Of a stretch of DNA of 64,000 bases, positions 29,443-64,000 are shown one piece after another (the stretch's first letter is position 1; the number at the start of each line of letters is the position of its first letter). The stretch is from contig CAXBCP010000001.1 of the NCBI GenBank assembly GCA_963974055.1, forward strand, positions 191,471-255,470, written 5' to 3'. The stretch is from an uncultured Rhodospirillaceae bacterium. Lineage in GTDB: Bacteria > Pseudomonadota > Alphaproteobacteria > MPNO01 > UBA830. Below the pieces are notes generated by a model, which ran no database searches, had not been told where the DNA came from, and saw only the letters and a program-made list of their open reading frames with translations. The position numbers and the translations under genes are program-made.

Positions 29443-30423
29443 ATGAAAACGCTTGTCACCGGAGCCGCGGGATTTATCGGTTACCATACCGCAACCCGTT
29501 TGCTCGACCGGGGCGACGAGGTCGTTGGTATCGATATTGTGAACGACTATTACAGCGTGGCGCTTAAAAACGCCCGGCTGGAACGGCTGAAACAGAGAGA
29601 CGGGTTTACGTTCCACAAGCTCGATCTTTCCGACCGGCAGGCCTTCGACGAAACTCGTTCGGCGATCCGTGGCGTCACCCGTGCTGTGCATCTCGCGGCG
29701 CAGGCGGGCGTCCGGCATTCGATCGAGCGGCCGTTCGACTATGTCGATGCGAACCTGGTCGCCCATATGACCGTTCTGGAATTATGCCGTCATCAGCCGG
29801 ATTTCGAACATCTGGTTTATGCCAGTTCAAGTTCGGTCTATGGCGGGAACACCAAGCTTCCATTTGCCGTCGAAGACCGCGTCGATGCGCCGGTATCGCT
29901 CTATGCGGCGACCAAGCTGGCCAATGAACATATGAGTTACAGTTATAGCCACCTTTACGGTCTTGCGCAGACGGGCCTGCGGTTTTTCACCGTCTACGGA
30001 CCTTGGGGGCGGCCGGATATGGCGCTGTATATATTCGCGGATGCCATCCTCAAAGGGCGGCCTATCGAGGTTTTCAATCATGGCGACATGAAGCGCGATT
30101 TTACCTATGTCGACGATATTGTGACGGGGGTCGTGGCGGCGCACGACAATCCGCCCTCCGCCGACCCGGGGCCGCCCCACAGGGTCTACAATATCGGAAA
30201 CAACCAATCGGAACCGTTGCTCCGCCTCATCAGCGTGCTCGAAGAGTGCCTCGGGAAAAAAGCGGAAACGATCATGAAGCCGATGCAACTGGGCGATGTG
30301 AAAGAGAGCTTCGCAGATATCGAAGCGATCCGGCGCGATCTCGGATTCGAGCCGACAACCCCGATCGATGTCGGCGTGCCGAAATTCGTCGAATGGCTCA
30401 GATCCTATAACGGGAATTACTGA
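29443..30423 (+). CDS. NAD-dependent epimerase/dehydratase (UDP-glucuronate 4-epimerase-like)
   Basis: Starts MKTLVTGAAGFIGYH, a Rossmann fold. Catalytic YAATK is present. The overall pattern matches the UDP-GlcA/UDP-GalA 4-epimerase (Cap1J/LpsL) subfamily. Confidence 0.85.
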   Translation: MKTLVTGAAGFIGYHTATRLLDRGDEVVGIDIVNDYYSVALKNARLERLKQRDGFTFHKLDLSDRQAFDETRSAIRGVTRAVHLAAQAGVRHSIERPFDYVDANLVAHMTVLELCRHQPDFEHLVYASSSSVYGGNTKLPFAVEDRVDAPVSLYAATKLANEHMSYSYSHLYGLAQTGLRFFTVYGPWGRPDMALYIFADAILKGRPIEVFNHGDMKRDFTYVDDIVTGVVAAHDNPPSADPGPPHRVYNIGNNQSEPLLRLISVLEECLGKKAETIMKPMQLGDVKESFADIEAIRRDLGFEPTTPIDVGVPKFVEWLRSYNGNY

Positions 30424-30465
30424 AGACCACCGAAGTCTGTGCCGGCCGACACTCCGCCCTGTGCG

Positions 30466-31845
30466 TCAGCCCCGCTTGATCAGATACCCGGACGAACCCC
30501 CAAGGGCGGGATGTTGCCGATCCGTATTTTTTGCAGGGTTCCCGGGAGCCGCGGGGTCGGGATTCGCAACGTCTGAATCTGCAGCGTCCGGCATCGTCGT
30601 ACGCTCTTTCGCAAGCTCCTGGCCTACCATCCATCGCGTAACCACGATAATCGCCAGCACGTGGTAATACAGGTCAAAGGTGGCGACATTCAGAAACACG
30701 CCGGCGGTGGCATACCCGACAAGGCTGACCTGCGTCATCTTCGACAGGTCGCGGGCCCATTTCAAATTCGGGCTGCCGCGCGCGAGATGGTTCGTTCGCG
30801 AACACGTGAAGAAAGCGACCGTTCCCAGCATTAGAAACAGGGTAAGACCGGGATAACCGTGTTCGCCCAGGACTTCGAAATAGATGCTGTGCGGCGCCCT
30901 GACAACCGGGGATTCCGGGTTGTAGATCGGCCACAAACGTTCCTGCGTATTGACCTTGAAACCGCCTCCCAGAAGGCGGTCGTTAGCTAGATTGATCGCG
31001 AAAAGCCATGCATCGAAACGGCCGGAGGCGGATTCGTCTTCTTCGTAGGAATCGATCGTATCCATCCTGTCGAACCACTTTTGCGGCATGAACGACAATA
31101 CGCCGACAATACAGACCGCAGCGGCAAAGGCCACCGGCAGTTTTTTGCTCGATCTGAGCCACAGGAAAAAGCCCATGGTTGAAAGCGCAAGCAGCGCCCC
31201 GCGGGAATATGTCCCGATAATGGCGGCCAGCGTCAGAAGAATCATGACGCTCAACATGTGTCGCACCCACTTGTTGGTGGCCACCAGTTGCAGATAATGC
31301 ATCAGCGGCATCGTCATGATCAGCGTCAGCGCAAGCTGGTTGTTGTCCTCGAAAAAGCTGCCGGGAGGTCCCCAGACCCGGTAGTTGCCGCCCGTCATTA
31401 TCGAAAACAGACCGCCCCGGACACCGTAAAAACCGATCGAAAACACAATCATAGCGATTAGCCAATTCAGGCGGACCTTGGTTTTGATCATTGCCAGCGT
31501 CAGAATCGTCATGATCTGGATTTTGCCGAATTCAATAAAACGCGTTTCGGCACGATCCGGCGCGAGTGCGGTAATTGTTGTTATCGCGGTCCAGGTAACA
31601 AAGAGAAACAGTACCACCGATACGGGTGATATCGGTATTCTCTTGTTCTCCCGGCTGATGGTGAACGCGATAATGGTGACAACGGCCGCAATCAGCGCGA
31701 ACTGGAAACTATAGGCGAACCCATAAGTCAGCCGATGCGGGTTCATATAGGATATCCACGAGAACAGCAGAATCCCGGTCCACGGCTGCTTGAATATCAG
31801 AGGGATCGAGCCGAAAACGATAAGCGTAATCAGGATATCGCGCAT
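30466..31845 (-). CDS. O-antigen ligase / Wzy-like polymerase family protein (exosortase A-associated O-glycosylation ligase type)
   Basis: 459 aa, about 12 TM, with a periplasmic loop (YSRGALLALSTMGFF..., IYFEVLGEHGYPG). Architecture is as in the XrtA-locus ligase family. Divergent from the glycosyltransferase at 32028. Confidence 0.7.
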   Translation of the reverse strand: MRDILITLIVFGSIPLIFKQPWTGILLFSWISYMNPHRLTYGFAYSFQFALIAAVVTIIAFTISRENKRIPISPVSVVLFLFVTWTAITTITALAPDRAETRFIEFGKIQIMTILTLAMIKTKVRLNWLIAMIVFSIGFYGVRGGLFSIMTGGNYRVWGPPGSFFEDNNQLALTLIMTMPLMHYLQLVATNKWVRHMLSVMILLTLAAIIGTYSRGALLALSTMGFFLWLRSSKKLPVAFAAAVCIVGVLSFMPQKWFDRMDTIDSYEEDESASGRFDAWLFAINLANDRLLGGGFKVNTQERLWPIYNPESPVVRAPHSIYFEVLGEHGYPGLTLFLMLGTVAFFTCSRTNHLARGSPNLKWARDLSKMTQVSLVGYATAGVFLNVATFDLYYHVLAIIVVTRWMVGQELAKERTTMPDAADSDVANPDPAAPGNPAKNTDRQHPALGGSSGYLIKRG

Positions 31846-32027
31846 CGGTCAGTCGGTCTTTCCTGCAGGTTGACATGCGGAAAAAAGCCGTCGCGTTTCC
31901 GCTTTCATCCAAACGTCAGTTCCACTAAAGATAACGGGTTCCGCCAAAAATGTGTAATCGTTCGGAATTATATCGCTGATCCAGCTGTATATTATCACCA
32001 GTACGTATTGAATATGAATATCCTCGC

Positions 32028-33374
32028 ATGAAGATATTATTAGTCTCCTGGTATTTCCCTCCCTGCAGTACCATGGGTGCTCTTCGTGTCGGGAAATTCG
32101 CGAAATACCTCGTCGGCGAAGGACACGACGTCCGCATCGTCTGCGCCAAAGACCAGCCTTACGCGATGGATCATCCCGTCGAGGTTCCGGAAGATTTCAT
32201 TTACCGGACGATCTGGCGCGATATCAACTGGTTGCCCGCCAGCATCCAGCGGGTACGCGCAGGCATCAAGTCTTTACTTTCCGGGAAAACCCGCGCGCCT
32301 GGCGTCGGGGCGCAGGATGCACCGCCGGCTGCGGCAAACACGCCGCACCAACCGAATGGCATTCTCCGCCTGATTCTGAATTTCTATCAGAACCTGACGA
32401 ACATTCCCGACGGTATGATTGGCTGGCTGTTACCAGCCTTGCGGGCGGGGCGCAAGGCGACGAAGGGCTGGAAGCCGGATGTCGTTTTTGCCAGCGCGCC
32501 GCCATTCACGACCCTGATCGCAGGGCGTATTATTGCCAAACGCGCAAAGGCGCCGCTTGTGATCGAATATCGCGACCGGTGGATCGAAGATCCCTACGGT
32601 CTCGAAGACCCGAAATTCCGCCAGTGGCTCGATCGCAGAATCGAAGAATGGTGCGCCCGTCCGGCCGTCGGCGTGGTGACGGTCTCCGATCCCTGGGCGG
32701 AGGATTACCGCCAGCGGTGGGGAAAGCCCGTTGCGGTTGCGTATAACGGCTTCGATCCGGACGATGTTGCCAAACTCGACGACGTGCCGCCTTCAGGATC
32801 CGACAAACTGAAAATTCTGTATACGGGTATCATATACCCCGAGCGCCGTGACCCGACCCCTTTATTCGAGGCACTGTCCAGACTGGGCGCCCGGCGTGAC
32901 GAGATTTCCGTAGATTTTTACGGGGCAAATGTCGGCCGGCTCGAGGGGGCGGTTGCCGGACATGCGCAGCAGGACATCGTGTCGCTGCGGCCCGGCATAC
33001 CGTTTGCGGAGGCCCTGAAACTGCAGCGTCAGGCCGACGTTCTTCTGCTGTTGCAATGGAACGACCCGCTCGAAGCAGGGAATGTGCCGGGGAAACTGTT
33101 CGAATACCTGGCCGCCCGGCGTCCCGTGCTGGGTATTGGTTTCGAGCAGGGCGTACCGGCGCGTATTCTTAGGGAACGCAATGCCGGGCGTGTTCTAAAC
33201 GATCCCGATCAGATTGCCGCTTACCTTACCGAGCTTCTCGACCAGAAAAAACGGAATGGCAGCATAGACCTGCTGCCGGCCGATGTATCCGCCGGTCTTT
33301 CCCGGCCGGAGCAATACAGGCATATCGAACGCATGCTTGGAGACGCCGGCCAGTTACGCGCCGACGCGCGCTGA
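32028..33374 (+). CDS. glycosyltransferase (GT-B fold, GT4-like)
   Basis: Starts MKILLVSWYFPPCSTMGALRVGKFAKYL. The C-terminal sugar-donor half has the E..KLFEYLAARRPVLG motif. Confidence 0.7.
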   Translation: MKILLVSWYFPPCSTMGALRVGKFAKYLVGEGHDVRIVCAKDQPYAMDHPVEVPEDFIYRTIWRDINWLPASIQRVRAGIKSLLSGKTRAPGVGAQDAPPAAANTPHQPNGILRLILNFYQNLTNIPDGMIGWLLPALRAGRKATKGWKPDVVFASAPPFTTLIAGRIIAKRAKAPLVIEYRDRWIEDPYGLEDPKFRQWLDRRIEEWCARPAVGVVTVSDPWAEDYRQRWGKPVAVAYNGFDPDDVAKLDDVPPSGSDKLKILYTGIIYPERRDPTPLFEALSRLGARRDEISVDFYGANVGRLEGAVAGHAQQDIVSLRPGIPFAEALKLQRQADVLLLLQWNDPLEAGNVPGKLFEYLAARRPVLGIGFEQGVPARILRERNAGRVLNDPDQIAAYLTELLDQKKRNGSIDLLPADVSAGLSRPEQYRHIERMLGDAGQLRADAR

Positions 33375-33428: not shown

Positions 33429-34880
33429 ATGAGTGTCCGGAAATCGCTGCTGATATCGTTCGGTGAAAAATACACCGTCCTTCTGATCTCGATCGCCTCG
33501 ACGATGATTCTGGCGCGCCTTTTGTCGCCGGCTGAAATCGGGATTTTTTCGGTCAGCGTGGCGGTTGTAGGCATAGCCCAGATGGTCCGCGACTTCGGCG
33601 TCACCCAGTATCTGATTGTCGAACGGGATTTGACGCGGGACCGAATCCGCGCGGCGTTCGGCATTACCATCGTTATTTCATGGTCGCTGGCGGCGGTGCT
33701 TTACTTTGGTCGCGACACCCTTGCTGATTTCTATTCGGAACCGAAGCTTCATACTGCGCTGTCCGTGCTGTGTTTCAATTTCATCCTGATTCCGTTCGGC
33801 AATCCCGTCCTTTCGCTGTTGCGCCGGGACATGGCGTTTGGAACGCTCTTCCGGATCAACACCCTGACGGCGATTATCCGGGAATCCACGGCGGTGGGTC
33901 TGGCATTTGGCGGTTTCGGGTTTATGAGTCTCGTTTGGGGTTCGTTTGCCGGGGTCGCCGCGACCGCCGCACTGGCGACACTCGCCCGGCCTTCCCAGGC
34001 CTGGGTGATGCCGGGGTTCCGGGAGTGGCGCCGGGTACTGAAATTCGGGCTCCCGGCCAGCGCCACCGCCTTCGTTTCGGAAATCGGCGCGAGCACGGCG
34101 GACCTGGCGCTTGGACGTATTCAGGGTTTCGCCGAAGTGGGCCTGTACAGCCGGGCCATGGGGCTGGTGAACCTGTTTCACCAGAACATCATGAGTGCGG
34201 TCAGGTGGGTATCTCTGCCGGCGTTTGCCGCCGACGAGCGCGACGGCAAGGCGCTTGAGGAAAATTATCTGAAGTCGGTCGGTTATGTTACCGCCGTGGC
34301 CTGGCCGTTCTACGGATTCCTCTGTCTGATGGCGTTTCCGATCATCCGGATTTTGTTCGGCGATCAATGGGATGAAAGTGTGCCGCTCGTCAGAATTCTG
34401 GCAATCGCCGGTATGATCGGCGCGACATGGAATCTCGCCGGGCAGGTGTTACTCGTGATCGGACTGGTCCGGAAAGTGTTCTGGGCGGAAGTGATTATCC
34501 AGAGCGCCCGCGTCCTGTTAATTATCGCGGCGGCGTTTCACAGTCTGGAACTCGTGGCGTGGGCGCAGGTCGTTACGTATTCAGTCGGTTTTTCCATCTA
34601 CCAGTTTTATCTGGGCCGCAATTTCAATATTACGCTGGTCGATGTGTTTCGAGCGGTCTGGAAGAGCCTGCTGGCGGCGATCTTCTCCGTGGTCGGCCCG
34701 GCGCTTGTCGTCCTGGCCTGGGGATTGACGCCGGACAATCTTTTTCTGTCGCTATTCGCCGCGTCCCTCGCCGCTGCGGTTGGCTGGCTGGCCGGGCTCT
34801 TCATCGTCAATCATCCGATGCGTATTGAAATACAATCGCTTATCATGCGGAAAACCAAATCCAGCCAAGGGGTCGATTAA
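33429..34880 (+). CDS. Wzx-type oligosaccharide flippase (MOP superfamily polysaccharide biosynthesis protein)
   Basis: 483 aa, about 12-14 TM, with a Wzx-like N-terminus (KYTVLLISIASTMILARLLSPAEIGIFSV). Confidence 0.75.
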   Translation: MSVRKSLLISFGEKYTVLLISIASTMILARLLSPAEIGIFSVSVAVVGIAQMVRDFGVTQYLIVERDLTRDRIRAAFGITIVISWSLAAVLYFGRDTLADFYSEPKLHTALSVLCFNFILIPFGNPVLSLLRRDMAFGTLFRINTLTAIIRESTAVGLAFGGFGFMSLVWGSFAGVAATAALATLARPSQAWVMPGFREWRRVLKFGLPASATAFVSEIGASTADLALGRIQGFAEVGLYSRAMGLVNLFHQNIMSAVRWVSLPAFAADERDGKALEENYLKSVGYVTAVAWPFYGFLCLMAFPIIRILFGDQWDESVPLVRILAIAGMIGATWNLAGQVLLVIGLVRKVFWAEVIIQSARVLLIIAAAFHSLELVAWAQVVTYSVGFSIYQFYLGRNFNITLVDVFRAVWKSLLAAIFSVVGPALVVLAWGLTPDNLFLSLFAASLAAAVGWLAGLFIVNHPMRIEIQSLIMRKTKSSQGVD

Positions 34881-34882
34881 CA

Positions 34883-35659
34883 GTGTTACCGCCAGTATTG
34901 GGATATGTCATCGGCTTTGCTCTGTTGGCCGTTCTTGTGTTGCTTTTATATGTGCTCTGGAAAGTCAGAGCAGTGCATTTAAAAGTCTATGACGTCATGG
35001 ATGCCGTTCGGCAAACTCAGGACAGAGACCTGGTAAATCATTTTCAGCAGTCCCAGCTGGTGCGTATTCTGGAGCATGAACTGGATCTGGACAGACCGCT
35101 GCCCGCATTGCGCGGGTGGGCGGCCTCTCCGGACTTTCTACTTGTCATAACACGGCATGCACGCGACCGGCGCCCGAAGATTGTCGTCGAATGCAGCTCA
35201 GGGGTTTCGACAATCGTTCTTGCGCGTGTCGCGCAACTCAACGGCCAAGGGCACGTTTATAGCCTGGAACACGATCCCGTTTTCGGTGCGCAGACCCGGC
35301 AGGAACTGCATGCCCGGGGCTTGGCGGAATGGGCGACGGTGATCGACGCTCCCCTTACGGAACATCGTATCGATGGCGATGCATGGCCGTGGTACAGCCT
35401 CGAAAATCTTCCCGTCGACGAAATCGATCAGATCGTCATTGACGGCCCACCCTACTCGGTAGGACCGCTCGCGCGCTATCCGGCCGGGCCGCTATTGTTC
35501 GGTAAGGTGCGAGAGGATGGCGCGGCGTTTCTGGATGATGCCGACCGGGTCGAGGAAACCGAAATTTCCGAACGCTGGGTGCGGGAATTGTCCGGGTGGA
35601 AAATGAACACGGAGTATTGCGAGAAAGGGTGCAGGCGGTTTACCCGGAGAGGCGATTAA
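34883..35659 (+). CDS. membrane-anchored class I SAM-dependent methyltransferase (Methyltransf_24-like)
   Basis: GTG start. An N-terminal TM helix (VLGYVIGFALLAVLVLLLYVLW). The MTase core is IVVECSSGVSTIVLARV...GHVYSLEHDP. Overlaps the next gene by 1 nt (TAATG). Confidence 0.55.
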   Translation: MLPPVLGYVIGFALLAVLVLLLYVLWKVRAVHLKVYDVMDAVRQTQDRDLVNHFQQSQLVRILEHELDLDRPLPALRGWAASPDFLLVITRHARDRRPKIVVECSSGVSTIVLARVAQLNGQGHVYSLEHDPVFGAQTRQELHARGLAEWATVIDAPLTEHRIDGDAWPWYSLENLPVDEIDQIVIDGPPYSVGPLARYPAGPLLFGKVREDGAAFLDDADRVEETEISERWVRELSGWKMNTEYCEKGCRRFTRRGD

Positions 35660-36612
35660 TGCCAGCAAGCTCTCCAGCAAAGGTTTCCGTCGTTATCCCG
35701 TGTTTCAATGACGGTGCCTATCTGGCGGAATCTGTCGGGTCCGTCCTGGCGCAACAGGGCGGTTTCGAACTGTGCGAGGTGCTTGTCGTCGACGACGGCA
35801 GCGACGATCCGCAGACGCTGGAGGCTCTTACCGAAATCGCAAAGCATCCAAAGGTAATAACAGCACCCAACGAAGAGCAGAAAGGCCCTGGAGGCGCCCG
35901 CAATACCGGAGTCAGACGCGCGACCGGCGACTGGATCGTATTTCTGGATTCCGACGACATCCTGTGCGACGGCAGTATCGATGCGCGACTGCGCGCCGCC
36001 GCCGGTTTTCCGGGGAGCCGTTGGGTGGGCGGGGATTTCATCATCCTGAACGAAGATGGCATCCTTGAATCGGAAACGTTTTTCAGAAGCCGCCCACAGC
36101 CGCGCAGGGTGGTGAACGCTGCATTCGAAACCGGCGCCCCGATACTGCTGTCTCGACCTGTGCGGGAATTCATTGAGAACCCGCCTACGAACATGTGTTG
36201 TACGATGGCGAAAAAAGACCTGATCGAGGCTGTTGGCGGGTTCGACCCGACGCAGCGCTTGCAGCAGGATTTTCATCTGTTTATTCGAATGGCGTATTAC
36301 GCTGATTTTGTCTTCGTCCCGCAGTCGGTGATGCATTACCGGCTGCACTCCGGAAATTCGACCCGGTCGTCACTGAATACGCTGCGCTGGCGGGAAACAG
36401 CCTGCCGGAAATTGCTGGCGGATGCGACGTTCGCGACATATGCGGCCGCGCTTAAACGAAAAATTTCGGAGGTTAACCGCGAGATCTCGGTTGAGCTTGC
36501 TGTCAGCGGATCGCAATGGTCGTCAATGCAGGCGGCCCTGCGGTCCCTTGTGGCCTGCCCGGAAAATATGGCGGGCTGGAAAAGGCTGGCAGCCAGCCTG
36601 ATTTTCAGATGA
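35659..36612 (+). CDS. glycosyltransferase family 2
   Basis: Starts VSVVIPCFNDGAYLAESVGSV. GT-A DxD-containing blocks are VVDDGSDD and IVFLDSDD. Confidence 0.8.
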   Translation: MPASSPAKVSVVIPCFNDGAYLAESVGSVLAQQGGFELCEVLVVDDGSDDPQTLEALTEIAKHPKVITAPNEEQKGPGGARNTGVRRATGDWIVFLDSDDILCDGSIDARLRAAAGFPGSRWVGGDFIILNEDGILESETFFRSRPQPRRVVNAAFETGAPILLSRPVREFIENPPTNMCCTMAKKDLIEAVGGFDPTQRLQQDFHLFIRMAYYADFVFVPQSVMHYRLHSGNSTRSSLNTLRWRETACRKLLADATFATYAAALKRKISEVNREISVELAVSGSQWSSMQAALRSLVACPENMAGWKRLAASLIFR

Positions 36613-56246: not shown

Positions 56247-57284
56247 ATGAGTGATTCGCTGACCGTCAAGGAACTCGACCCCGCCGGAATCGCGGCCTGG
56301 GATGCGTTCGTCGAGTCCTGTCCCGATGCGACTTTCTATCATCGCGCCGGCTGGAAAGAGGTCATCGAGAAGACGTTCGGCCACCGGTGCTATTTCCTCC
56401 AGGCGGAACGGGACGGAGAGATCAGGGGCGTGCTGCCGCTGGTGCTGGCGAAAAGCCTAATTTTCGGGAAAAGCCTTGTCTCGACCGGGTTTACCGTCGG
56501 CGGCGGTCCCGCGGTGCTCGACCGCGAGGCGCTGGCGGCGCTCGATGACAGGGCGATAGAGATTGCCGAGACCCATAATATCGATGCCATCGAATATCGC
56601 GGGAAGACGCCGCTGCACGACGACTGGGCACACAAGACCGGCCTGTATGCCGGGTTCCGGCGCGAGATCGAAAGCGACGCCGAGAAGAACATGCTCGCGA
56701 TCCCGCGCAAGCAGCGGGCGATGGTGCGCAAGGGCATAAAGACCGGGCTGGAAAGCGAAATCGAGACCGATCCCGCCCGGCTCTACCATATCTACGCGGT
56801 TAGCGTGCGGAACCTCGGCACGCCGGTATACCCGCGTCGCTATTTCGACCATTTGATGCGGGTCTTTGGCGACGTGCTCGACATCGTGACCATCACCAAG
56901 GACGGGCGTGCCGTCGCGAGTGTCCTGAATTTTTACTTCCGCGACGAAGTGCTGCCCTATTACGGCGGCGGGCTGACCGAAGCGCGTGCCCTGGCGGCGA
57001 ACGATTTCATGTACTGGGAGGTGATGCGCCGGGCCGGCGAACGCGGGTATCGCTGGTTCGATTTCGGCCGCAGCAAGGAAGGCACCGGCGCCTATTCCTT
57101 CAAGAAAAACTGGGGATTCGAGCCGGAACCGTGGACGTACGAATATTATCTCCGCACCGGCGGGGAAATTCCCGAAATCAATCCGCTGAATCCCAAATAC
57201 CGGTATTTCATTGCGGCGTGGAAGAAAATGCCTGTCGGGCTGGCCAAGCGGCTGGGACCGCTGATCGTTCGCGGAATCAGCTGA
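56247..57284 (+). CDS. FemAB-family (GNAT-fold) protein, PEP-CTERM system-associated type
   Basis: 345 aa: MSDSLTVKELDPAGIAAWDAFVESCPDATFYHRAGWKEVIEKTF... This is the characteristic FemAB-related N-terminus. Confidence 0.75.
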   Translation: MSDSLTVKELDPAGIAAWDAFVESCPDATFYHRAGWKEVIEKTFGHRCYFLQAERDGEIRGVLPLVLAKSLIFGKSLVSTGFTVGGGPAVLDREALAALDDRAIEIAETHNIDAIEYRGKTPLHDDWAHKTGLYAGFRREIESDAEKNMLAIPRKQRAMVRKGIKTGLESEIETDPARLYHIYAVSVRNLGTPVYPRRYFDHLMRVFGDVLDIVTITKDGRAVASVLNFYFRDEVLPYYGGGLTEARALAANDFMYWEVMRRAGERGYRWFDFGRSKEGTGAYSFKKNWGFEPEPWTYEYYLRTGGEIPEINPLNPKYRYFIAAWKKMPVGLAKRLGPLIVRGIS

Positions 57285-57288: not shown

Positions 57289-58527
57289 ATGCAGGATCTT
57301 CTCTTCCTTGTGCACCGGATTCCCTTTCCGCCCAATAAAGGCGACAAGATACGGTCGTGGAATATTCTCGAATATCTGGCCGGTCGGTATCGCGTTCATG
57401 TCGGCTGTTTCGTGGACGATCCGCATGACTGGCAGTTTACCGGCCGTATCGAGGATATCGCGGCGTCGACATTCTTCAGAAAACTGGACCGCCGGCGCGG
57501 GCTGGTCCGGTCTTTCGCAAACCTGCTGACCGGCGATCCACTGACCTGCGGGTATTATCGCGATCGCGCGATGGCATGCTGGGTCGATGAGACGGTGAAG
57601 CAGAACAGGATTTCACGCGTCTTCGTGTATTCGTCGTCCATGGCGCAGTATATTCCCGACAACCCGGCTGCGGACGCGCGCGTTGTCGTCGATTTCGTCG
57701 ATATCGATTCCGACAAGTGGCGGCAATATGCCGAACGGAAACCGTGGCCGATGAAACAGGTCTATGCGCGTGAAGCACGGACCCTGTTCACGGTCGAAAA
57801 ACGGGTTGCTGCCGCTGCGGATGCGGCTGTGTTCGTGTCGGAAGACGAAGCGGCTCTTTTCAGGACCATGTCGCCTGATACCGCGGCAAACGTTCATGGA
57901 ATCGCCAACGGTGTCGATTGTGTGTTTTTCGATCCCGCTTGCGGTTCCGGGTCACCCTATGATCCGGGCCAGACGACCCTCGTCTTTACAGGGGCGATGG
58001 ATTACTGGGCGAATGTCGATGCGGTCTGCTGGTTTGCAGATGATGTCTTTCCACGAATCCGCGCTGCCCTTCCGGCGTGTGAATTCGTAATTGTCGGTGC
58101 CAATCCCACGCCCGATGTCGTGAAATTGGGTACCCGGGCCGGGATTACAGTCACCGGGCGCGTCGCCGATGTCCGTCCCTATATCGTCCATGCGACAATA
58201 TCGGTCGCCCCGCTTCGGGTGGCGCGTGGTATACAGAACAAAGTACTGGAGGCGATGGCCCTTGAAAAGGCCGTCGTCGCAACGCTCCAGGCCATGGAAG
58301 GCATCGATGCGACGGATGGCGAAGAAGTCTTCGTCGCCGAAGATGCAGCCGAATTTGCTGACACCGTGCTGTCGCTGGCGGCGGCGTCAGATCGACATAT
58401 TGCCGGTGGTCGCGCGCGGCGGCGTGTGCTCGAATCCTATGGCTGGTTAACCAGTCTTCAGAAATTCGAGAGTATTTTGGAGGGTAACGCGTCGGGTGAT
58501 AAGCTCTCCGGCGTTTCAGGGAATTAG
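57289..58527 (+). CDS. GT4 glycosyltransferase (sugar transferase, PEP-CTERM/EpsH1 system-associated type)
   Basis: Starts MQDLLFLVHRIPFPPNKGDKIRSWNILEYL, characteristic of this subfamily. C-terminal donor-binding GT-B half is present. Confidence 0.8.
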   Translation: MQDLLFLVHRIPFPPNKGDKIRSWNILEYLAGRYRVHVGCFVDDPHDWQFTGRIEDIAASTFFRKLDRRRGLVRSFANLLTGDPLTCGYYRDRAMACWVDETVKQNRISRVFVYSSSMAQYIPDNPAADARVVVDFVDIDSDKWRQYAERKPWPMKQVYAREARTLFTVEKRVAAAADAAVFVSEDEAALFRTMSPDTAANVHGIANGVDCVFFDPACGSGSPYDPGQTTLVFTGAMDYWANVDAVCWFADDVFPRIRAALPACEFVIVGANPTPDVVKLGTRAGITVTGRVADVRPYIVHATISVAPLRVARGIQNKVLEAMALEKAVVATLQAMEGIDATDGEEVFVAEDAAEFADTVLSLAAASDRHIAGGRARRRVLESYGWLTSLQKFESILEGNASGDKLSGVSGN

Positions 58528-58540: not shown

Positions 58541-60124
58541 ATGCAGTCCGGCACCGATGGCGAAGACGTCGAAGCGACCGCTTCGGCAACGGCGTCGCCT
58601 GTCAGCGATATGGCCGTTTCGGAACGATGGCGCTTGGCATTGATCGCCGTGTCGGTCGCGATCGTCGGATTGTGCGCCGTCTTCTGGGGCACCGCCAGCC
58701 AGATGGTCGAAACGTGGTACGAATCCGCGACGTTCAACCATGGCTTCATGATCGTTCCGATATGCGGCTGGCTTATCTGGGAGCGCCGGGAGGCGATCGT
58801 GAAATATGTCCCGAAACCCGATTTCCGGGGTCTTGGGATTATTGCGGTCTGCATGGTCATATGGACCGTCGCGGATGCGGCAAGCGTTCAGTCCATCATG
58901 CAGTTCGCGCTGGTCGGAATGATCCAGGGGGCCGTACTGACCGTGCTCGGCTGGCGCCTGGTCCGGGCGATGCTGTTTCCGCTCGTGTTCCTGTTTTTTG
59001 CCGTTCCGTTCGGCGACTTTCTGATTCCGACATTGCAGGACGTGACCGCGGCGATGGTCGTCGAGGGTCTGCGGATAATCGACATCCCGGTCTTTATCGA
59101 CGGCGTTTTTCTGTCGATTCCAAGCGGCAACTTCGAAGTCGCCGAGGCCTGTTCCGGGGTGCGTTTCCTTATCGCGACGATCGCGCTGGGCTGTCTGTTT
59201 GCCAATCTCAGCTTCCGCACCCCGCTGCGCAGGTCGATCATCCTGTTTCTCGCCGTCCTTGTGCCGATTGTCGCCAACGGGATTCGCGCCTTCGGCATCG
59301 TTTATATCGCACACATCACCGATCATACGGTTGCCGTCGGGGTCGATCACCTGGTGTACGGGTGGATATTCTTCGCGTTCGTCACGATCGTATTGCTGGC
59401 GATCGGGATGACGTTTCGCGAAACCGATGGCGACAATGAAATTTACATGCCGACCGACGATGACCGCGTTGCCGGCCGGTTCAGCAATCCGAAAGGGCTG
59501 ATCGCCGGTGCGGTAGCGTCTCTGGCAATTGCGGTGGTCGGTCCGGCCTATGCCGGTGTGATGCTTGAACGCGGCGTGGTAAGGGTTATTGCGCCGCTGG
59601 CGGCGCCCGCCGTCGGGAACGGCTGGGAGCCGGTCGGCAAGGCGGAGACTGCGTGGCGGCCGAAATTTATCGGCGCAGATGCCGAACTGATGACGTCGTA
59701 CCGGAAGTCGGGCGCGCGGGTGCATCTGTATATGGCCTATTACACCCATCAACGGCAGGGCGCGGAGCTCGTCAATTTCGCCAATACATCCGTCGATCGG
59801 AACTGGCAGCGGTCGGGAAGCGGATTCACCCCGGTCCAGATCGGCAGTACCGACCAGGTGGTGAAATCGACCCGGTTGCTGGGGCGCAACAGTCGTCGTC
59901 TGGTCTGGGAATGGTACTGGATCGGCGGGAATTTCACCTCGGACCGGTATTTTGCGAAGGTTTACGAAGCGATTGCCAAACTTTTCGGTCGGCACAAGGA
60001 AGCCGCGGCCATCGTCGTGGCTGCCGATTTCGACGAAAGCGTCGCCGACGCCGACCGAACCCTGCGGGACTTTCTCGCCAATCTCGGCAGCATCGAAGAG
60101 ACGCTGCATAAATCAACGCGATGA
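58541..60124 (+). CDS. xrtA: exosortase A (XrtA) fused to EpsI domain
   Basis: 8-TM exosortase domain with the conserved ATFNHGF block, the catalytic Cys motif EACSGVRFLI and Arg motif ANGIRAFG. C-terminal ~220 aa: EpsI/DUF3485-like periplasmic domain. Start ambiguous (GTG 58496 or ATG 58541). Confidence 0.8.
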   Translation: MQSGTDGEDVEATASATASPVSDMAVSERWRLALIAVSVAIVGLCAVFWGTASQMVETWYESATFNHGFMIVPICGWLIWERREAIVKYVPKPDFRGLGIIAVCMVIWTVADAASVQSIMQFALVGMIQGAVLTVLGWRLVRAMLFPLVFLFFAVPFGDFLIPTLQDVTAAMVVEGLRIIDIPVFIDGVFLSIPSGNFEVAEACSGVRFLIATIALGCLFANLSFRTPLRRSIILFLAVLVPIVANGIRAFGIVYIAHITDHTVAVGVDHLVYGWIFFAFVTIVLLAIGMTFRETDGDNEIYMPTDDDRVAGRFSNPKGLIAGAVASLAIAVVGPAYAGVMLERGVVRVIAPLAAPAVGNGWEPVGKAETAWRPKFIGADAELMTSYRKSGARVHLYMAYYTHQRQGAELVNFANTSVDRNWQRSGSGFTPVQIGSTDQVVKSTRLLGRNSRRLVWEWYWIGGNFTSDRYFAKVYEAIAKLFGRHKEAAAIVVAADFDESVADADRTLRDFLANLGSIEETLHKSTR

Positions 60125-60177
60125 TGACCGCCGGGCCGGATAGCCGCCTATCCCGCGGCAATGGAGACAAATTGTAA

Positions 60178-62112
60178 ATGTGCGGAATTACAGGCCTGTT
60201 CGACACCGTCGGTCGCAGCGAGATCGATCGCGGTTTGTTGACGCGCATGAATGACAGCCATCGTCACAGGGGCCCGGACGGAGACGGTGTGTTCCTGGAC
60301 GACGGTATCGGCCTGGGACACCGCCGGCTTTCGATTATCGACCTTTCGGGCGGCGCGCAGCCGTTGTTCAACGAAGACGAATCCGTCGTCGTCGTCTTTA
60401 ACGGCGAGATCTATAATTTTCAGGAGCTTTCCAAGGAGCTGATCGAAGCCGGTCACCGGTTCCGGACCCACAGCGACACCGAAGTCATCGTGCATGCCTG
60501 GGAAGAATGGGGACAGGCCTGCGTCGACCGTTTCCGCGGCATGTTCGCCTTTGCGCTTTGGGACCGGAAGAAAGAAACGCTGTTCCTGGTGCGCGACCGT
60601 CTCGGGATCAAGCCCCTGTATTATGCGGTCCTCCCCAACGGGACCCTTATTTTCGGTTCCGAGCTGAAATCGCTGCTGCTGCATCCGGCCTTCGAGCGGA
60701 AACTGGACCCGACCGCGGTCGAGGAGTATTTCGCCTATGGATACGTTCCCGACCCGAAAACCATCTATGCCGGCGCGCACAAGCTTGCTCCCGGCCATCT
60801 GATCAAGTGGCGCCGGGGCGACAGCCGCCCGCGGCCGCAAAAGTACTGGGATATCAGCTTCGATCCGTCGGACCACCGGGACGAAGGCGAAATCTGCGAA
60901 GACCTGATCGAACAGATGCGCGAAGCGGTAAAACTGCGGATGATCGCCGATGTGCCGCTCGGCGCGTTCCTGTCCGGCGGGGTGGATTCCAGCGCCGTTG
61001 TCGCGATGATGGCGGGCGAGGACAGCGATCCGGTGAATTCCTGCTCGATATCCTTCGCAGACCCGAAGTTCGACGAATCCCGATATGCCCAGACGGTGGC
61101 CGACCGGTACGGAACGGATCATTTCGTCGACCAGGTCGATCCCGACGCCTTCGATCTCGTAGACCGTCTGGCGAATATGTATGACGAACCGTTCGCGGAT
61201 TCATCCGCGATGCCGACTTACCGGGTATGCGAACTGGCCCGCAAACGGGTTACCGTCGCCCTTTCCGGCGATGGCGGCGACGAAATCTTCGCCGGTTACC
61301 GCCGCTACCGATGGCATGATTATGAGGAACGGGTCAGAGGGATTTTACCCGATGCGATCCGCAAGCCGCTCTTCGGGTTTCTCGGCGCCGCCTATCCGAA
61401 AATGGATTGGGCGCCGAAACCGCTGCGGGCGAAATCGACCCTTCAGGCGATCGGGCGCGATACGGTAGGCGGTTTTTTCCACAGCGTGTCCGTGTTGTAC
61501 GACGGCGTCCGGCAGCCCATCTACAGCGATGCGTTTCGCAACGATCTCCAAGGGTACCACGCGCGGGAGGTGCTCGATAACGTCATGGCAGATGCGCCGG
61601 CCGACGACCATACGTCCCGCGTGCAATACGCCGATCTCAAGACCTATTTGCCGGGCGATATTCTGACCAAGGTCGACCGGGCGAGCATGGCACATTCGCT
61701 GGAAGTGCGTGTGCCGTTGCTCGATCACAAATTCGTCGAATGGTCGGCGCGGCTTCCGTCCGCGCTCAAGCTGCGTGGCCGCGAAGGGAAGTATATTTTC
61801 AAGAAAGCGCTGGAACCGCATCTCGGCAATGACATCCTCTACCGTTCCAAGATGGGATTTTCCGTACCGCTGGGCACCTGGTTCAGGGGACCGCTCAGGG
61901 AACGGGTCGAGACGGCGCTGTGCGGAGAGACACTGGCGGATACGGGCATGTTCGACGTAAACCAGTTGAAGACAATCGTTTCCGAGCACCAGTCGGGCGT
62001 GCGCGAACATTCTGCGGTCATGTGGGCGCTGCTGATGTTTGAGAGTTTTCTCCGGCAGGTGCACAATGAGGCTGGAATACCGGAAAATGTTTCGAACCCG
62101 GCGGATGCCTGA
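60178..62112 (+). CDS. asnB: asparagine synthase (glutamine-hydrolysing), XrtA/PEP-CTERM system amidotransferase type
   Basis: Starts MCGITGLFD with the Cys2 nucleophile. PP-loop FLSGGVDSSAV. 644 aa. Confidence 0.9.
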   Translation: MCGITGLFDTVGRSEIDRGLLTRMNDSHRHRGPDGDGVFLDDGIGLGHRRLSIIDLSGGAQPLFNEDESVVVVFNGEIYNFQELSKELIEAGHRFRTHSDTEVIVHAWEEWGQACVDRFRGMFAFALWDRKKETLFLVRDRLGIKPLYYAVLPNGTLIFGSELKSLLLHPAFERKLDPTAVEEYFAYGYVPDPKTIYAGAHKLAPGHLIKWRRGDSRPRPQKYWDISFDPSDHRDEGEICEDLIEQMREAVKLRMIADVPLGAFLSGGVDSSAVVAMMAGEDSDPVNSCSISFADPKFDESRYAQTVADRYGTDHFVDQVDPDAFDLVDRLANMYDEPFADSSAMPTYRVCELARKRVTVALSGDGGDEIFAGYRRYRWHDYEERVRGILPDAIRKPLFGFLGAAYPKMDWAPKPLRAKSTLQAIGRDTVGGFFHSVSVLYDGVRQPIYSDAFRNDLQGYHAREVLDNVMADAPADDHTSRVQYADLKTYLPGDILTKVDRASMAHSLEVRVPLLDHKFVEWSARLPSALKLRGREGKYIFKKALEPHLGNDILYRSKMGFSVPLGTWFRGPLRERVETALCGETLADTGMFDVNQLKTIVSEHQSGVREHSAVMWALLMFESFLRQVHNEAGIPENVSNPADA

Positions 62113-62967
62113 ATGACCCAAGAACTTTTCGCCACTGTTTACCGCATGTATGCGCCGTCGGCATGTCGCGCGGCGAAACTTCTTCGCCAGGTGTTGGCGG
62201 GAGCGGCGACCTGTTTGTGCATTTTGGTCGCTTCGGGGGCGCCGGTTGCCGCTGACGACGCGCTGGTGGATACGATCGTGCAGATCAAACCGAGCATTGT
62301 GGGTGTCGGCACTTTCCAGGAAATCCGCCGTCCGCCGTCCAATCTGCTTGGCACCGGTTTCAACGTGATCGACGACCGGCACATCCTGACGAATTCCCAT
62401 GTTCTGCCCAAATCGATTAAAAATTCCCGGCGCGAATATTACTGCATTTTCGTTGGCACTGGCCGAAGCGCGAAAATCGTGCGGGTCAGCGTTGTCATGC
62501 GCGACGAGGCGCATGACCTTGCGCTGCTGCGGGCGGACCGGCCCCTTACGTCCAAACCGCTCCGGTTGCGGTCGGCGGTCAACGCCAGGGAAGGGATGTC
62601 CGTGGCGTTTACCGGCTTTCCGATCGGGGCGGTGCTCGGTCTTTATCCGGTAACCCACCGCGGCATGATTTCGGCGAAAACCCCCATTGCGATTCCGCAG
62701 GCATCGCCAAAGCGGCTCGATCCCAAAATGATAAAGCGGCTGCGGGGCAGTTTCGAGGTCTTTCAACTCGACGCGACCGCCTATCCCGGCAATAGCGGCA
62801 GCCCGTTATACGACCCGAACAATGGCGACGTCGTGGGCATCGTCAGCAGCGTTTTTGTAAAGTCTTCCAAGGAAAAGGCGCTGTCCGATCCCAGCGGCAT
62901 AACCTATGCCATCCCGTCGGACGTCGCTATTCAGCTCCTGCAAAGAGCAGGTTTGCTCAAACCCTGA
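62113..62967 (+). CDS. trypsin-like (S1 family) serine protease, catalytic domain only
   Basis: Signal peptide LAGAATCLCILVASGAPVAA. Catalytic triad contexts: TNSHV (His), DLALL (Asp), GNSGSP (Ser). No PDZ domain. The ATG abuts the asnB stop. Confidence 0.75.
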   Translation: MTQELFATVYRMYAPSACRAAKLLRQVLAGAATCLCILVASGAPVAADDALVDTIVQIKPSIVGVGTFQEIRRPPSNLLGTGFNVIDDRHILTNSHVLPKSIKNSRREYYCIFVGTGRSAKIVRVSVVMRDEAHDLALLRADRPLTSKPLRLRSAVNAREGMSVAFTGFPIGAVLGLYPVTHRGMISAKTPIAIPQASPKRLDPKMIKRLRGSFEVFQLDATAYPGNSGSPLYDPNNGDVVGIVSSVFVKSSKEKALSDPSGITYAIPSDVAIQLLQRAGLLKP

Positions 62968-63010
62968 AGCATTGCGGGGCTGCCGGCCAATCGTCCAGTT
63001 CGAACCGGTA

Positions 63011-63964
63011 TCAGGCCTGTGCACTCAGCCGCCAGATAATCCAGATGATCGAAAACAGACCGAGCGCTGCCAGTGTAATCGGCGACTGGATGAACGGCAG
63101 TATGTTGTCTTCCAGAAAGGCGATGACGCGTTGCAGCGCGTTCGATTTTCCGCCGAGCTGTTTCGGCGGTTCTTTACCGCCGGCGCCGCCGGTTGTCCGC
63201 TGGACTGTGCCGGAGGGCCTCAGGGGCTGATCGCCCTGGGCGAATTTGATCGCAGTGCCCCCGTTCAGGTCTACGACGAAGAAGCTGTTATTTTCCTGCA
63301 GGTGCAACAGCGCGAAATCGCCGAATCCGGCGATCGAAAAGGTCACCATGCCGTCAGTCGTCTGTTCAGGGTTGAGAAGCGTGACGACCAGGTCGGTCAC
63401 CGTCGCATCGATCACCGAAGCGATCAGCCCGCCGCTGGCGCTTTGCCCGCCCCCGCTTTCGCCGCCCGGTGCGGCTTCGCCGGGCACGGAATTTACAAGT
63501 GCGCGCACGATATCTGCCGTCGAGCCGGTCGATTCCCCGGCCGTTGCACCGGTATTTTCCCGGGGGTCGGAAAGCGCCTGGTTTTCCGCGCCGCCGGTCA
63601 GTTCGTCACGGACCGTCCGCGTCAGGTCATTGTCCTCGGCCCCCTGCAGTCCGCTCGTGCCCTGATCGCCGATAATCGTGAAGCCGGAACCGGCCGCCCC
63701 GCCGATTTCCGTATTATTCGAGATTTCGGGCGGTGTGGCGCCCAGGCTTCCGGCGGGCGGCACCCGTGGGGCCGTCAGCGGGGCCTGAAGACCCGGTTGC
63801 GCCGATTGCAGGATTGTGGGTCCGGACAGGACGGTATTCTGAACTGCCGTAAGCATCATCGATACTGCGATCGCCTGCAGCGGGAGGATCAAACCCCGCA
63901 CCTTTAGTTTCAGCTCATTGAAAATGGCTGTAGCTGTTATTTTCGACTGGTTGTCTTGGCGCAT
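63011..63964 (-). CDS. secreted Gly/Thr/Ala-rich protein with degenerate PEP-CTERM-like C-terminal anchor (candidate exosortase substrate)
   Basis: N-terminal signal-like segment (KLKVRGLILPLQAIAVSMMLTA). Long G/T/A/S-rich low-complexity middle. C-terminus ...PFIQSPITLAALGLFSIIWIIWRLSAQA: a Pro-containing turn, a ~16-residue hydrophobic helix, then a short polar tail with a single Arg. Confidence 0.45.
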   Translation of the reverse strand: MRQDNQSKITATAIFNELKLKVRGLILPLQAIAVSMMLTAVQNTVLSGPTILQSAQPGLQAPLTAPRVPPAGSLGATPPEISNNTEIGGAAGSGFTIIGDQGTSGLQGAEDNDLTRTVRDELTGGAENQALSDPRENTGATAGESTGSTADIVRALVNSVPGEAAPGGESGGGQSASGGLIASVIDATVTDLVVTLLNPEQTTDGMVTFSIAGFGDFALLHLQENNSFFVVDLNGGTAIKFAQGDQPLRPSGTVQRTTGGAGGKEPPKQLGGKSNALQRVIAFLEDNILPFIQSPITLAALGLFSIIWIIWRLSAQA

Positions 63965-64000
63965 TTTGATAGGAATTCGTGATCCTGTAATTTTTACAGC

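Follow-up and report, generated by a model that had tools for sequence, protein, structure and literature searches.

An exosortase A (XrtA/PEP-CTERM) exopolysaccharide locus of the textbook type in an uncultured pelagic marine alphaproteobacterium

The window analysed here, a stretch of 64,000 nucleotides, comes from an uncultured pelagic marine alphaproteobacterium. Families were called with NCBIfam models, whose bit scores are given below against their curated cutoffs, and with Pfam as a supplement. Ten core genes lie between 48.3 and 62.1 kb, all on the forward strand (+). They encode a short OPX (Wza-like) polysaccharide export protein (48342-48935; TIGR03027, 234 vs 180), an XrtA-system chain-length determinant or PCP (49429-51051; TIGR03007, 539 vs 279), an XrtA-associated tyrosine autokinase (51067-52905; TIGR03018, 252 vs 231, residues 386-593), a PEP-CTERM-system outer-membrane beta-barrel protein (52933-54429; TIGR03016, 171 vs 91), an ExeA-like AAA ATPase of the XrtA/PEP-CTERM system (54440-55375; TIGR03015, 376 vs 325), an XrtA-system polysaccharide deacetylase called at 272 aa (55423-56241; TIGR03006, 448 vs 276), a FemAB-family XrtA-associated protein (56247-57284; TIGR03019, 474 vs 260), the glycosyltransferase stp1 (57289-58527; TIGR03087, 536 vs 317), exosortase A fused to an EpsI domain (58541-60124; TIGR03109, 332 vs 208, and TIGR02914, 125 vs 43) and an AsnB-like XrtA/PEP-CTERM-system amidotransferase that starts MCGI (60178-62112; TIGR03108, 1068 vs 817). 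All ten score above XrtA/PEP-CTERM-specific cutoffs and stand in the order the original prediction had given, including the three on which it had been staked: XrtA/EpsI, the locus kinase and the locus ATPase. It had also called this order a conserved one, and the arrangement Wza-ChnLen-Kin-OMP-ATPase-Deac-FemAB-stp1-XrtA-AsnB does recur across alpha-, beta- and gammaproteobacteria, at about 50 of the 63 related loci.

The names EpsE, EpsF and EpsG, which had been attached to the first three core genes, are wrong because the models for them fail (TIGR03028, 66 vs 263; TIGR03017, 45 vs 423; TIGR03029, 65 vs 314). These labels belong to another system, the XrtB-type system of Methylobacillus. One could still argue for a Methylobacillus-type, methanolan-like system here from the shared broad functional classes (OPX, PCP, BY-kinase) and the weak matches to those models. 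The XrtA-type models all pass instead, and the XrtB model itself, TIGR03113, reaches 73 against 275. We regard an XrtB-type system as refuted and give it practically no chance. The eps cluster of Methylobacillus sp. 12S (EpsE/F/G/H/I, with another exosortase type) has functional classes and an EpsI homologue in common with our locus, but its EpsI is a separate gene, whereas ours is fused to the exosortase and the 12S-specific models fail.

Models for other exosortase subtypes all fall below cutoff (XrtW, 276 vs 425; XrtD, 181 vs 400; XrtB, 73 vs 275). The protein has nine predicted TM segments, with the EpsI domain at residues 371-532 (TIGR02914), and its nearest genome relatives have an XrtA identity of 72-75%. 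Residues C204, R208, R249 and H270 are invariant in an alignment of 15 proteins whose members are 32-73% identical to the one in the window. Cys, Arg and His form the conserved triad that Haft et al. described for exosortases (2006, PMC1569441). The OPX call is 197 aa long, with PF02563 and SLBB domains and a weak match to EpsY (101 bits). The kinase clears its cutoff by a narrow margin. Its length is probably 612 aa, against 248 aa from gene callers; the frame can be followed upstream without interruption to the chain-length stop codon in almost all of the roughly 50 related loci tested. A conserved N-terminal motif is followed by a linker rich in Pro and Ala (about 360 aa) and the kinase domain; Walker motifs are present, and the C-terminus has a cluster of Tyr residues (…SYQNSYY).

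Just upstream of the core lies a module that the original prediction had not described. Two XrtA-associated hydrolases are encoded on the reverse strand (-), the first with an alpha/beta fold and called at 281 aa (40687-41532; TIGR03100, 357 vs 168), the second at 41529-42344 (TIGR03101, 249 vs 203). An acyl carrier protein follows on the same strand (42379-42630, -), which matches ACP models below their cutoffs (E 1e-8) and has the serine motif LDSM. On the forward strand (+) are an XrtA-associated AMP-forming acyl-CoA ligase (43520-45091; TIGR03098, 763 vs 592) and an XrtA-associated PLP-dependent decarboxylase (45088-46353; TIGR03099, 602 vs 478). Between ACP and ligase is an unannotated gene (42754-43461, +) whose product has no direct family match in NCBIfam or Pfam. 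We assign it as a divergent GNAT-fold acyltransferase from its homologues, 11 of 26 of which match PF00583, and from its three best PDB profile matches, all of them GNATs, though weak. It is conserved with the ACP/ligase module and sits between ACP and ligase in the related loci L079 and L080 too. The module is followed by a second asparagine-synthase-like gene of 627 aa (46350-48233, +), whose TTG start overlaps the decarboxylase stop (TTGA) and whose product is below cutoff (TIGR03108, 254 vs 817). Its residue 2 is Thr, and therefore it has no N-terminal Cys nucleophile; homologues carry Ser at this position. The ACP, the GNAT and the second AsnB-like protein were absent from the original prediction, as were the two hydrolases, the ligase and the decarboxylase. 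With the O-antigen-ligase-like family described next, which that prediction had not recognised as XrtA-associated, the last four make five further XrtA-associated families at 30-46 kb.

The genes for the repeat unit and its transport lie farther upstream. An NAD-dependent sugar-nucleotide epimerase/dehydratase (29443-30423, +; Pfam Epimerase) reaches the cutoff of no specific model (GalE, 129 vs 262; RmlB, 132 vs 365), so it is assigned at family level only. An XrtA-associated O-antigen-ligase/Wzy-like membrane protein (30466-31845, -; TIGR03097, 521 vs 188; PF04932 Wzy_C) is the probable polymerase. Then come a GT4 glycosyltransferase (32028-33374, +; Pfam Glyco_trans_4_4 and Glyco_transf_4, weak WcaI/stp3 matches), a Wzx-type MOP flippase (33429-34880, +; PF01943, PF13440; NF007773 at 186 bits, below its cutoff of 273), a methyltransferase (34883-35659, +; PF13578, 29.5 bits), a GT2 glycosyltransferase called at 317 aa (35659-36612, +; PF00535, with GT2-type NCBIfam matches), a second GT4 glycosyltransferase (36695-37708, +; PF00534, PF13692) and the UDP-GlcNAc 2-epimerase WecB (37754-38848, -; TIGR00236, 278 vs 210). 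The original prediction had placed epimerases, glycosyltransferases, a Wzx flippase, an O-antigen-ligase-like protein and a methyltransferase upstream of the core, and such genes are there: the epimerase/dehydratase, WecB, three glycosyltransferases, Wzx, the TIGR03097 gene and the methyltransferase. A secreted right-handed beta-helix protein (38986-40683, +; PF13229, 41 bits; N-terminal signal/TM segment) is possibly a glycanase or lyase. Toward the other end are an AT3 + SGNH protein (23379-25394, +; PF01757, 119 bits; PF19040, 111 bits), probably a polysaccharide O-acetyltransferase, and a 541-aa membrane protein with at least 8 TM helices (21245-22870, +), which has no family match in NCBIfam or Pfam and whose membership in the locus is uncertain. 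Membership is also uncertain for a membrane-anchored beta-helix protein resembling Pel9A and chondroitinase B (19220-20752, -; Pfam PF14592, 26 bits; NosD), which has one N-terminal TM helix and whose corresponding gene call on L156 carries PF22842. The GC dip starts at this gene, and the polysaccharide region possibly has its upstream limit here. The locus may start near 19-23 kb.

Between 20 and 38 kb the GC content is 0.51-0.59; most of the core and the opening 20 kb have 0.59-0.65. The dip at 20-32 kb could reflect a separate origin of the upstream part. This raises the question of whether two loci are simply juxtaposed here. In that case the low-GC stretch between about 20 and 38 kb, which encodes the acyltransferase, the epimerase, the Wzy-like protein, glycosyltransferases, Wzx, the methyltransferase and WecB, would be a horizontally acquired O-antigen or capsule cluster that does not feed the XrtA core. 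Besides the GC difference, the glycosyltransferases point this way, none of those at 20-38 kb being above an XrtA-specific cutoff, and so does the position of these genes outside the conserved order of relatives. We nevertheless think two loci unlikely. The low-GC stretch includes a Wzy-like gene of the XrtA-specific family TIGR03097, the core itself lacks both a flippase and a polymerase, and XrtA-associated hydrolase and ligase genes sit between that stretch and the core. Variable glycosyltransferase blocks of lower GC are normal in polysaccharide loci, which also counts against this explanation. We prefer a single locus.

The claim that most genes are joined by overlaps of 0-4 nt does not survive a count, since junctions of 4 nt or less account for only 7-8 of 20 same-strand junctions, and gaps of 493, 108, 82, 58, 54 and 53 nt are also present. 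The largest, the spacer preceding the chain-length gene (48936-49428), is a probable promoter region. An Rfam search of it matched no family. The proteobacterial 'PEP-CTERM box', as tested, consists of a motif ending in TTTACA, a spacer of about 63 nt and a sigma-54 -24/-12 site. Its definition comes from the regions ahead of PEP-CTERM genes; the region considered here precedes the chain-length gene. It contains TGCTAGTTTACG at 49208-49219, in common with L009 and 59 nt ahead of TGGCTGAATATCGGCG. The latter has the right GG/GC spacing, but it is a poor match and is not kept in L009. Matches to the sigma-54 consensus are not enriched (19 observed vs 23 expected), and we see no convincing sigma-54 promoter.

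Downstream of the core, a secreted S1 (trypsin-like) serine protease (62113-62967, +; PF00089, PF13365, with DegP-type matches below cutoff) abuts AsnB (TGAATG). Its place is the same in 12 related loci, and in two more it directly follows XrtA. A 317-aa membrane protein (63011-63964, -) with TM helices near both ends has no family match in profile searches; homologues 28-41% identical occur in L008-L010, conserved beside the protease in the closest relatives. PrsK, PrsR, PrsT and the priming transferase are absent from the window in profile searches, and the guess that they lie beyond 64 kb proved right. The window is 100% identical to the 430-kb Tara Oceans scaffold_40 over the 34.3 kb that were compared, in two stretches, and Tara scaffold_90, which differs from it by 3 mismatches in 13.8 kb, continues past the window end with PGT-PrsK-PrsR-PrsT-deacetylase-like-stp2 (window-equivalent 64.5-74 kb). 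The phosphoglycosyl transferase is at window-equivalent 64493-65881 (TIGR03013, 589 vs 393), and PrsK, PrsR and PrsT are at 65883-72256 (776 vs 300, 701 vs 503 and 793 vs 312). The stp2 glycosyltransferase is below cutoff, cut at the locus end. One Tara assembly carries prsK split into 600 + 111 aa. Over the whole locus, the ten core proteins, 5 further XrtA-associated families and 4 downstream genes are above curated cutoffs. The locus is at least 45 kb long and reaches at least about 74.5 kb, beyond the window end; calling it complete at 35 kb was wrong.

A pattern search found no gene for a PEP-CTERM protein in the window plus 10 kb on each side (about 84 kb). The same search finds genuine PEP-CTERM genes in merely 2 of 63 related XrtA loci (L021, L027), so this absence is expected and uninformative. 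It could be taken instead, together with the split prsK of one assembly, as a sign of a degenerate or repurposed locus, in which the polysaccharide machinery works and XrtA has no PEP-CTERM clients in a planktonic marine genome. Haft et al. noted degenerate systems, found the system mostly in organisms of sediment, soil and biofilms, and used a threshold of more than 2 PEP-CTERM (TIGR02595) proteins per genome (2006, PMC1569441). We consider degeneration quite improbable, as the catalytic residues of XrtA are intact, scaffold_90 carries intact copies of PrsK, PrsR and PrsT, and the local absence is what the related loci lead one to expect.

We believe with high confidence that the second half of the window carries the greater part of an XrtA/PEP-CTERM exopolysaccharide locus, probably a Wzx/Wzy-dependent pathway coupled to an exosortase. 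The cluster is of the textbook exosortase A type and ordinary for its known class, the XrtA (EpsH-type 1)/PEP-CTERM system (Haft et al. 2006, PMC1569441; TIGR030xx 'XrtA-associated' models): all marker families are above cutoff, EpsI is fused to XrtA, PrsK/PrsR/PrsT are adjacent, and the Cys/Arg/His residues and core order are kept. It differs from the systems of that survey in being a single uninterrupted block, at least 45 kb long, that includes regulators and priming transferase, whereas prsK/R adjoin epsH in just 3 of 13 genomes there (PMC1569441). The genetically tested examples are the floc clusters of the betaproteobacteria Aquincola tertiaricarbonis RN12 and Zoogloea resiniphila MMB, which share the order epsB2 (TIGR03013)-prsK-prsR and also have prsT and a large EPS cluster. 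There the large EPS cluster, epsB2-prsK-prsR and pepA-prsT are described as separate loci (PMC9850573). Their PEP-CTERM gene pepA lies upstream of prsT, whereas on scaffold_90 just 81 nt separate prsR from prsT and no PEP-CTERM gene lies between them. In Aquincola, flocs were lost when a transposon had inserted into epsB2, prsK or prsT; complementation confirmed epsB2 and prsT and failed for prsK (PMC9850573).

The locus can also be set beside generic Wzx/Wzy pathways, with which it shares a flippase, a Wzy-like polymerase, a PCP, a separate kinase and a short OPX. Beyond these it has the exosortase, the AAA ATPase, the FemAB-like protein, the amidotransferase and the ACP/ligase/decarboxylase module. 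Among generic capsule and EPS pathways of this kind are some in which PCP and BY-kinase are split and a short OPX is paired with a distinct outer-membrane barrel, for example Myxococcus EpsY.

The analysis demonstrates family membership and gene order for this locus, the conservation of its catalytic residues and the position of the missing genes. The Wzx/Wzy parts are identified by family (PF01943, PF04932, TIGR03007, TIGR03027, TIGR03013), and from family function we infer how the system would work. The TIGR03013 transferase, outside the window, would prime undecaprenyl phosphate. GT4, GT2, stp1 and stp2 transferases would assemble the repeat unit from precursors provided by WecB and the epimerase/dehydratase, and the methyltransferase, AT3-SGNH acyltransferase, deacetylase, FemAB-like protein and AsnB amidotransferase would modify it. 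The ACP/ligase/decarboxylase/GNAT/hydrolase module probably attaches a further substituent. Wzx would flip the unit, the TIGR03097 Wzy-like protein would polymerise it, and the split chain-length protein and BY-kinase pair would set polymer length before export through the short OPX protein and the TIGR03016 barrel. PrsK/PrsR, a sigma-54-type two-component pair, and the TPR lipoprotein PrsT would provide regulation. XrtA-EpsI is a putative inner-membrane Cys/Arg/His enzyme cleaving the C-terminal PEP-CTERM anchor of secreted proteins, and this cleavage would let those proteins join the matrix.

The locus is a genuine, unusually contiguous and canonical XrtA/PEP-CTERM locus, and the original prediction is supported with some corrections. 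We tested its gene series with an ORF map and three NCBIfam scans at curated cutoffs. The series is as predicted, and all ten core proteins exceed the cutoffs of models specific to XrtA/PEP-CTERM systems. These are the OPX exporter (48342-48935; TIGR03027, 234 bits against a cutoff of 180), the chain-length determinant (49429-51051; TIGR03007, 539 against 279), the tyrosine autokinase (51067-52905; TIGR03018, 252 against 231), the outer-membrane barrel (52933-54429; TIGR03016, 171 against 91), the ATPase (54440-55375; TIGR03015, 376 against 325), the deacetylase (55423-56241; TIGR03006, 448 against 276), the FemAB-like protein (56247-57284; TIGR03019, 474 against 260), the glycosyltransferase stp1 (57289-58527; TIGR03087, 536 against 317), XrtA with EpsI (58541-60124; TIGR03109, 332 against 208, and TIGR02914, 125 against 43) and the amidotransferase (60178-62112; TIGR03108, 1068 against 817). 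The exosortase falls below the cutoff of every other subtype model tested, XrtW, XrtD and XrtB included. Residues C204, R208, R249 and H270 of XrtA are invariant in a 15-sequence alignment; Haft et al. (2006, PMC1569441) pointed to the Cys/Arg/His set of exosortases as a sortase-like triad.

Two details of the prediction have to be changed. EpsE, EpsF and EpsG are names from the Methylobacillus-type system, and their models fail here (66 against 263, 45 against 423 and 65 against 314). Most genes were said to be joined by 0-4 nt; GTGA, two TTGA and TGAATG junctions are indeed present, but independent gene calls put only 7-8 of 20 same-strand junctions at 4 nt or less. The others measure 10-108 nt, apart from a single gap of 493 nt.

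The locus is also larger than was claimed. It had been called complete at 29443-64000, but it spans at least 45 kb, from 29.4 to about 74.5 kb. The Tara Oceans scaffold_40 (SAMEA4397489, 430 kb) has no mismatches to the window over 21.6 kb and 12.7 kb, and scaffold_90 (SAMEA4397536, 228 kb) differs from it at 3 bases in 13.8 kb. Downstream positions were read on scaffold_90 as window-equivalent coordinates. There we find the priming phosphoglycosyl transferase (64493-65881; TIGR03013, 589 against 393), PrsK (65883-68009; TIGR02916, 776 against 300), PrsR (68006-69364; TIGR02915, 701 against 503) and PrsT (69446-72256; TIGR02917, 793 against 312), all above cutoff; the prediction that these four lay beyond 64 kb was therefore correct. 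None of the three Prs proteins is found among the ABC/TRAP transporter and oxidoreductase genes of the first 19 kb. On scaffold_90, PrsT is followed by a 329-aa protein (72278-73267, minus strand; 698-1687 of locus L006; weak PF01522) and by the glycosyltransferase stp2 (73383 onward; TIGR03088, partial), which is cut at the locus end. An exact 60-nt search of JGI metagenomes to extend the scaffold gave no match.

Two observations on these downstream genes stand apart. The prsK gene is intact on scaffold_90 (708 aa) and split into calls of 600 and 111 aa on Tara scaffold_1360 (L001/L005, window-equivalent about 65.9-68.0 kb); the split is a frameshift carried by part of the natural population or an artefact of assembly. 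The 329-aa deacetylase-like protein has 332 metagenome relatives and recurs beside stp2/PrsT, the ligase/decarboxylase module or XrtA in eight loci (L074, L075, L077, L079, L080, L093, L100 and L128), and it probably represents a further XrtA-associated family for which there is no model.

At the other end, the locus may start upstream of 29.4 kb. A lower-GC stretch from about 20 kb holds an AT3-SGNH acyltransferase (23379-25394), two beta-helix proteins and a multi-TM protein of no family. Unrelated transport and redox genes occupy the window up to 19 kb and the preceding 10 kb. GC is 0.51-0.57 at 20000-32000, stays below 0.59 up to 38 kb and is 0.59-0.65 through most of the rest; the genes at 20000-32000 include the acyltransferase, MarR, a luciferase-like monooxygenase, MBL-fold and C-type-lectin-like proteins, an epimerase and the Wzy-like gene. 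This fall in GC suggests a horizontally exchanged variable block. Among the transport genes is a Liv-type ABC transporter operon headed by a Peripla_BP_6 substrate-binding gene (called 7048-8262, minus strand), with a TPP riboswitch (RF00059, 8404-8511, minus strand; 74 bits against a gathering threshold of 54) about 140 nt upstream of that gene. That cargo class is unusual for a thiamine riboswitch, and the transporter may carry a thiamine precursor.

A scan of one genome per species turned up a relative of this XrtA at 63 loci, the closest being those of uncultured Alphaproteobacteria MAGs (75% identity under the label Paracoccaceae, 72% under Rhodospirillaceae). The order Wza, chain-length determinant, kinase, barrel, ATPase, deacetylase, FemAB, stp1, XrtA, AsnB recurs in about 50 of the 63, across Alpha-, Beta- and Gammaproteobacteria. 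Divergence along the core is uneven. Against the two closest relatives, L008 and L009, the barrel (52933-54429) is 65-67% identical, stp1 (57289-58527) 72-73% and XrtA (58541-60124) 72-75%, and the genes that neighbour them are far less diverged, at 85-97%.

The upstream genes named in the prediction are present: the epimerase/dehydratase, WecB, three glycosyltransferases, Wzx, a methyltransferase and the O-antigen-ligase-like protein. Beyond the ten core proteins, five families annotated as associated with the exosortase A system score above cutoff inside 29443-64000, which the prediction missed. The matches are a Wzy/O-ligase-like protein (30466-31845, minus strand; TIGR03097, 521 against 188), hydrolase 1 (40687-41532, minus; TIGR03100, 357 against 168), hydrolase 2 (41529-42344, minus; TIGR03101, 249 against 203), an acyl-CoA ligase (43520-45091; TIGR03098, 763 against 592) and a PLP decarboxylase (45088-46353; TIGR03099, 602 against 478). 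Beside the hydrolase, ligase and decarboxylase genes lies an 83-aa acyl carrier protein (42379-42630, minus).

Two more genes sit among these. The first encodes a 235-aa protein (42754-43461, plus strand, trimmed from an ORF at 42475-43461) that matches no model directly. We assign its homologues to the GNAT acyltransferases, since PF00583 is matched by 11 of 26 and GNATs take the first three places, albeit weakly, among the PDB profile matches. The family, one of divergent GNAT acyltransferases, has at least 124 sequences, and in the window as in L079 and L080 the gene lies between the acyl carrier protein and the XrtA-associated ligase. The second is an AsnB-like gene (46350-48233, plus strand, trimmed from 45666-48233) that scores far below the TIGR03108 cutoff (254 against 817). 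Its product begins M-T-G-L-V-G-W where the true amidotransferase begins M-C-G-I, and two homologues have Ser at that position. Since Thr takes the place of Cys at position 2, the protein lacks the Cys nucleophile and so, judging from its sequence, probably does not hydrolyse glutamine. It lies between the decarboxylase and the exporter, as it does in three other loci (L011, L022 and L023). The divergent GNAT and the Cys-less AsnB paralogue may complete an ACP/ligase/decarboxylase module that would make an acyl or aminoacyl decoration.

The kinase gene needs a longer argument. Metagenome gene callers give it 248 aa and leave the preceding 1.1 kb (51067-52158, plus strand) uncalled. The frame is free of stops for 364 more codons, back to 15 nt after the stop of the chain-length gene, which by our own rough base-composition calculation (not tool output) has a chance of about 5e-5 at this GC. 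In nearly all of about 50 related loci tested it is open to within tens of nt of the chain-length stop and in several it extends beyond it, with distances of 43 to 376 codons. The long ORF opens with a conserved motif, MTD..PRRG…SSSVEKAAERL, shared by the window and its three closest relatives (L008, L009 and L010), and two gammaproteobacteria have the counterparts SLIERFMEKL and SLIDRLMEKK. The start codon is ATG in L008 and L009 and TTG in the window. Between motif and kinase domain lies a stretch rich in Pro, Ala, Gly and Arg; its codon-position GC is consistent with that composition. Genomes that share 95-97% identity in the kinase domain share only 30-33% in this stretch. Walker motifs and a terminal Tyr cluster are present in the kinase domain. 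From the open frame, its maintenance in relatives and the conserved motif we conclude that the kinase is probably 612 aa long and that a long disordered linker joins its conserved N-terminal motif to a BY-kinase domain at the C terminus. The motif may be a regulatory or docking element overlooked by gene callers and by the domain-only TIGR03018, and the linker that tethers it may range in length between a few dozen and about 370 residues.

The core is followed by a gene pair that no XrtA-specific model covers. A secreted S1 protease that lacks a PDZ domain (62113-62967, plus strand) abuts the amidotransferase gene, and a 317-aa membrane protein of no family (63011-63964, minus) separates it from the priming transferase. 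We dropped a plus-strand ORF at 62906-63907 in favour of the membrane-protein ORF, which gene finders call, which has homologues in relatives and which follows the expected order GC3 > GC1 > GC2. The protease directly follows AsnB in 12 related loci, mostly alphaproteobacterial, and directly follows XrtA in two more; the membrane protein is kept only in the three closest relatives. Either PEP-CTERM proteins or the matrix may be the target of this pair.

PEP-CTERM-like tails were found by pattern search on no ORF of the window or of the 10 kb on either side. Strict and loose patterns were run on all stop-to-stop ORFs of the window and of locus L002, and a later, looser one on the upstream and downstream loci; all returned only out-of-frame artefacts. 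The looser pattern does recover genuine tails (…IPEPGTLGLLGVGLVALAGLSRRRRKA in L021, …IPEPSSLALLGLGLIGAGIASRRKAKKTA in L027). Such tails occur in only 2 of the 63 related loci, so it is normal to find none near the locus, and this carries no information on the genome. A rhomboid-family protease (2105-2731, plus strand) was considered as a rhombosortase or second C-terminal sorting enzyme and rejected (40.5 against a cutoff of 84).

PEP-CTERM genes have been reported to follow a motif whose last bases are TTTACA and which precedes a sigma-54 site by about 63 nt (Haft 2006, PMC1569441). The 493-nt spacer before the chain-length gene (48936-49428) contains TGCTAGTTTACG at 49208-49219, its sole match in the window, and so does L009; it lies 59 nt upstream of a weak GG/GC-spaced element that is not conserved. 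Aligned across 8 relatives, the spacer has nothing conserved beyond a short block common to the window and L009. That block, around TTGCTAGTTTACG, resembles the published PrsR-box motif. In most alphaproteobacterial relatives 179-648 nt lie between exporter and chain-length gene, against 5-93 nt in most other loci, sphingomonads included. Sigma-54 sites are not enriched, since the consensus TGGCACN5TTGCW with 2 mismatches gives 19 matches against 23 expected. A sigma-70 and terminator scan of 47.8-53.2 kb yielded nothing decisive, and Rfam at gathering thresholds found no family in the spacer or elsewhere in the locus.

From the functions of its families, the locus would encode a Wzx/Wzy-dependent exopolysaccharide pathway coupled to an exosortase. 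In Aquincola and Zoogloea such a cluster is required for flocs: transposon insertions in epsB2 (TIGR03013), prsK and prsT abolish them, complementation confirmed epsB2 and prsT, and the PEP-CTERM gene pepA, whose transcription depends on RpoN1, is also involved (PMC9850573). The order epsB2-prsK-prsR is the same on scaffold_90, and no pepA-like gene precedes prsT there.

We regard as possible, though rather doubtful, the idea that the XrtA system has unrecognised parts in the alphaproteobacterial lineage, namely the kinase motif, the protease/membrane-protein pair and the GNAT with the Cys-less AsnB. What is mildly new is at the level of annotation only: the long kinase, the GNAT family, the Cys-less paralogue, the pair and the 329-aa family. 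Curators may find use in a 612-aa kinase for the 248-aa call, a GNAT family without a name in current models and a protease/membrane-protein pair conserved in alphaproteobacterial loci. Knowledge of exosortases is unchanged and no long-standing question is opened. The work contributes one XrtA/PEP-CTERM locus that is well resolved and fully contiguous; it comes from an uncultured alphaproteobacterium of the open ocean, and its presence there hints at a particle-attached or aggregate-forming lifestyle of the host.
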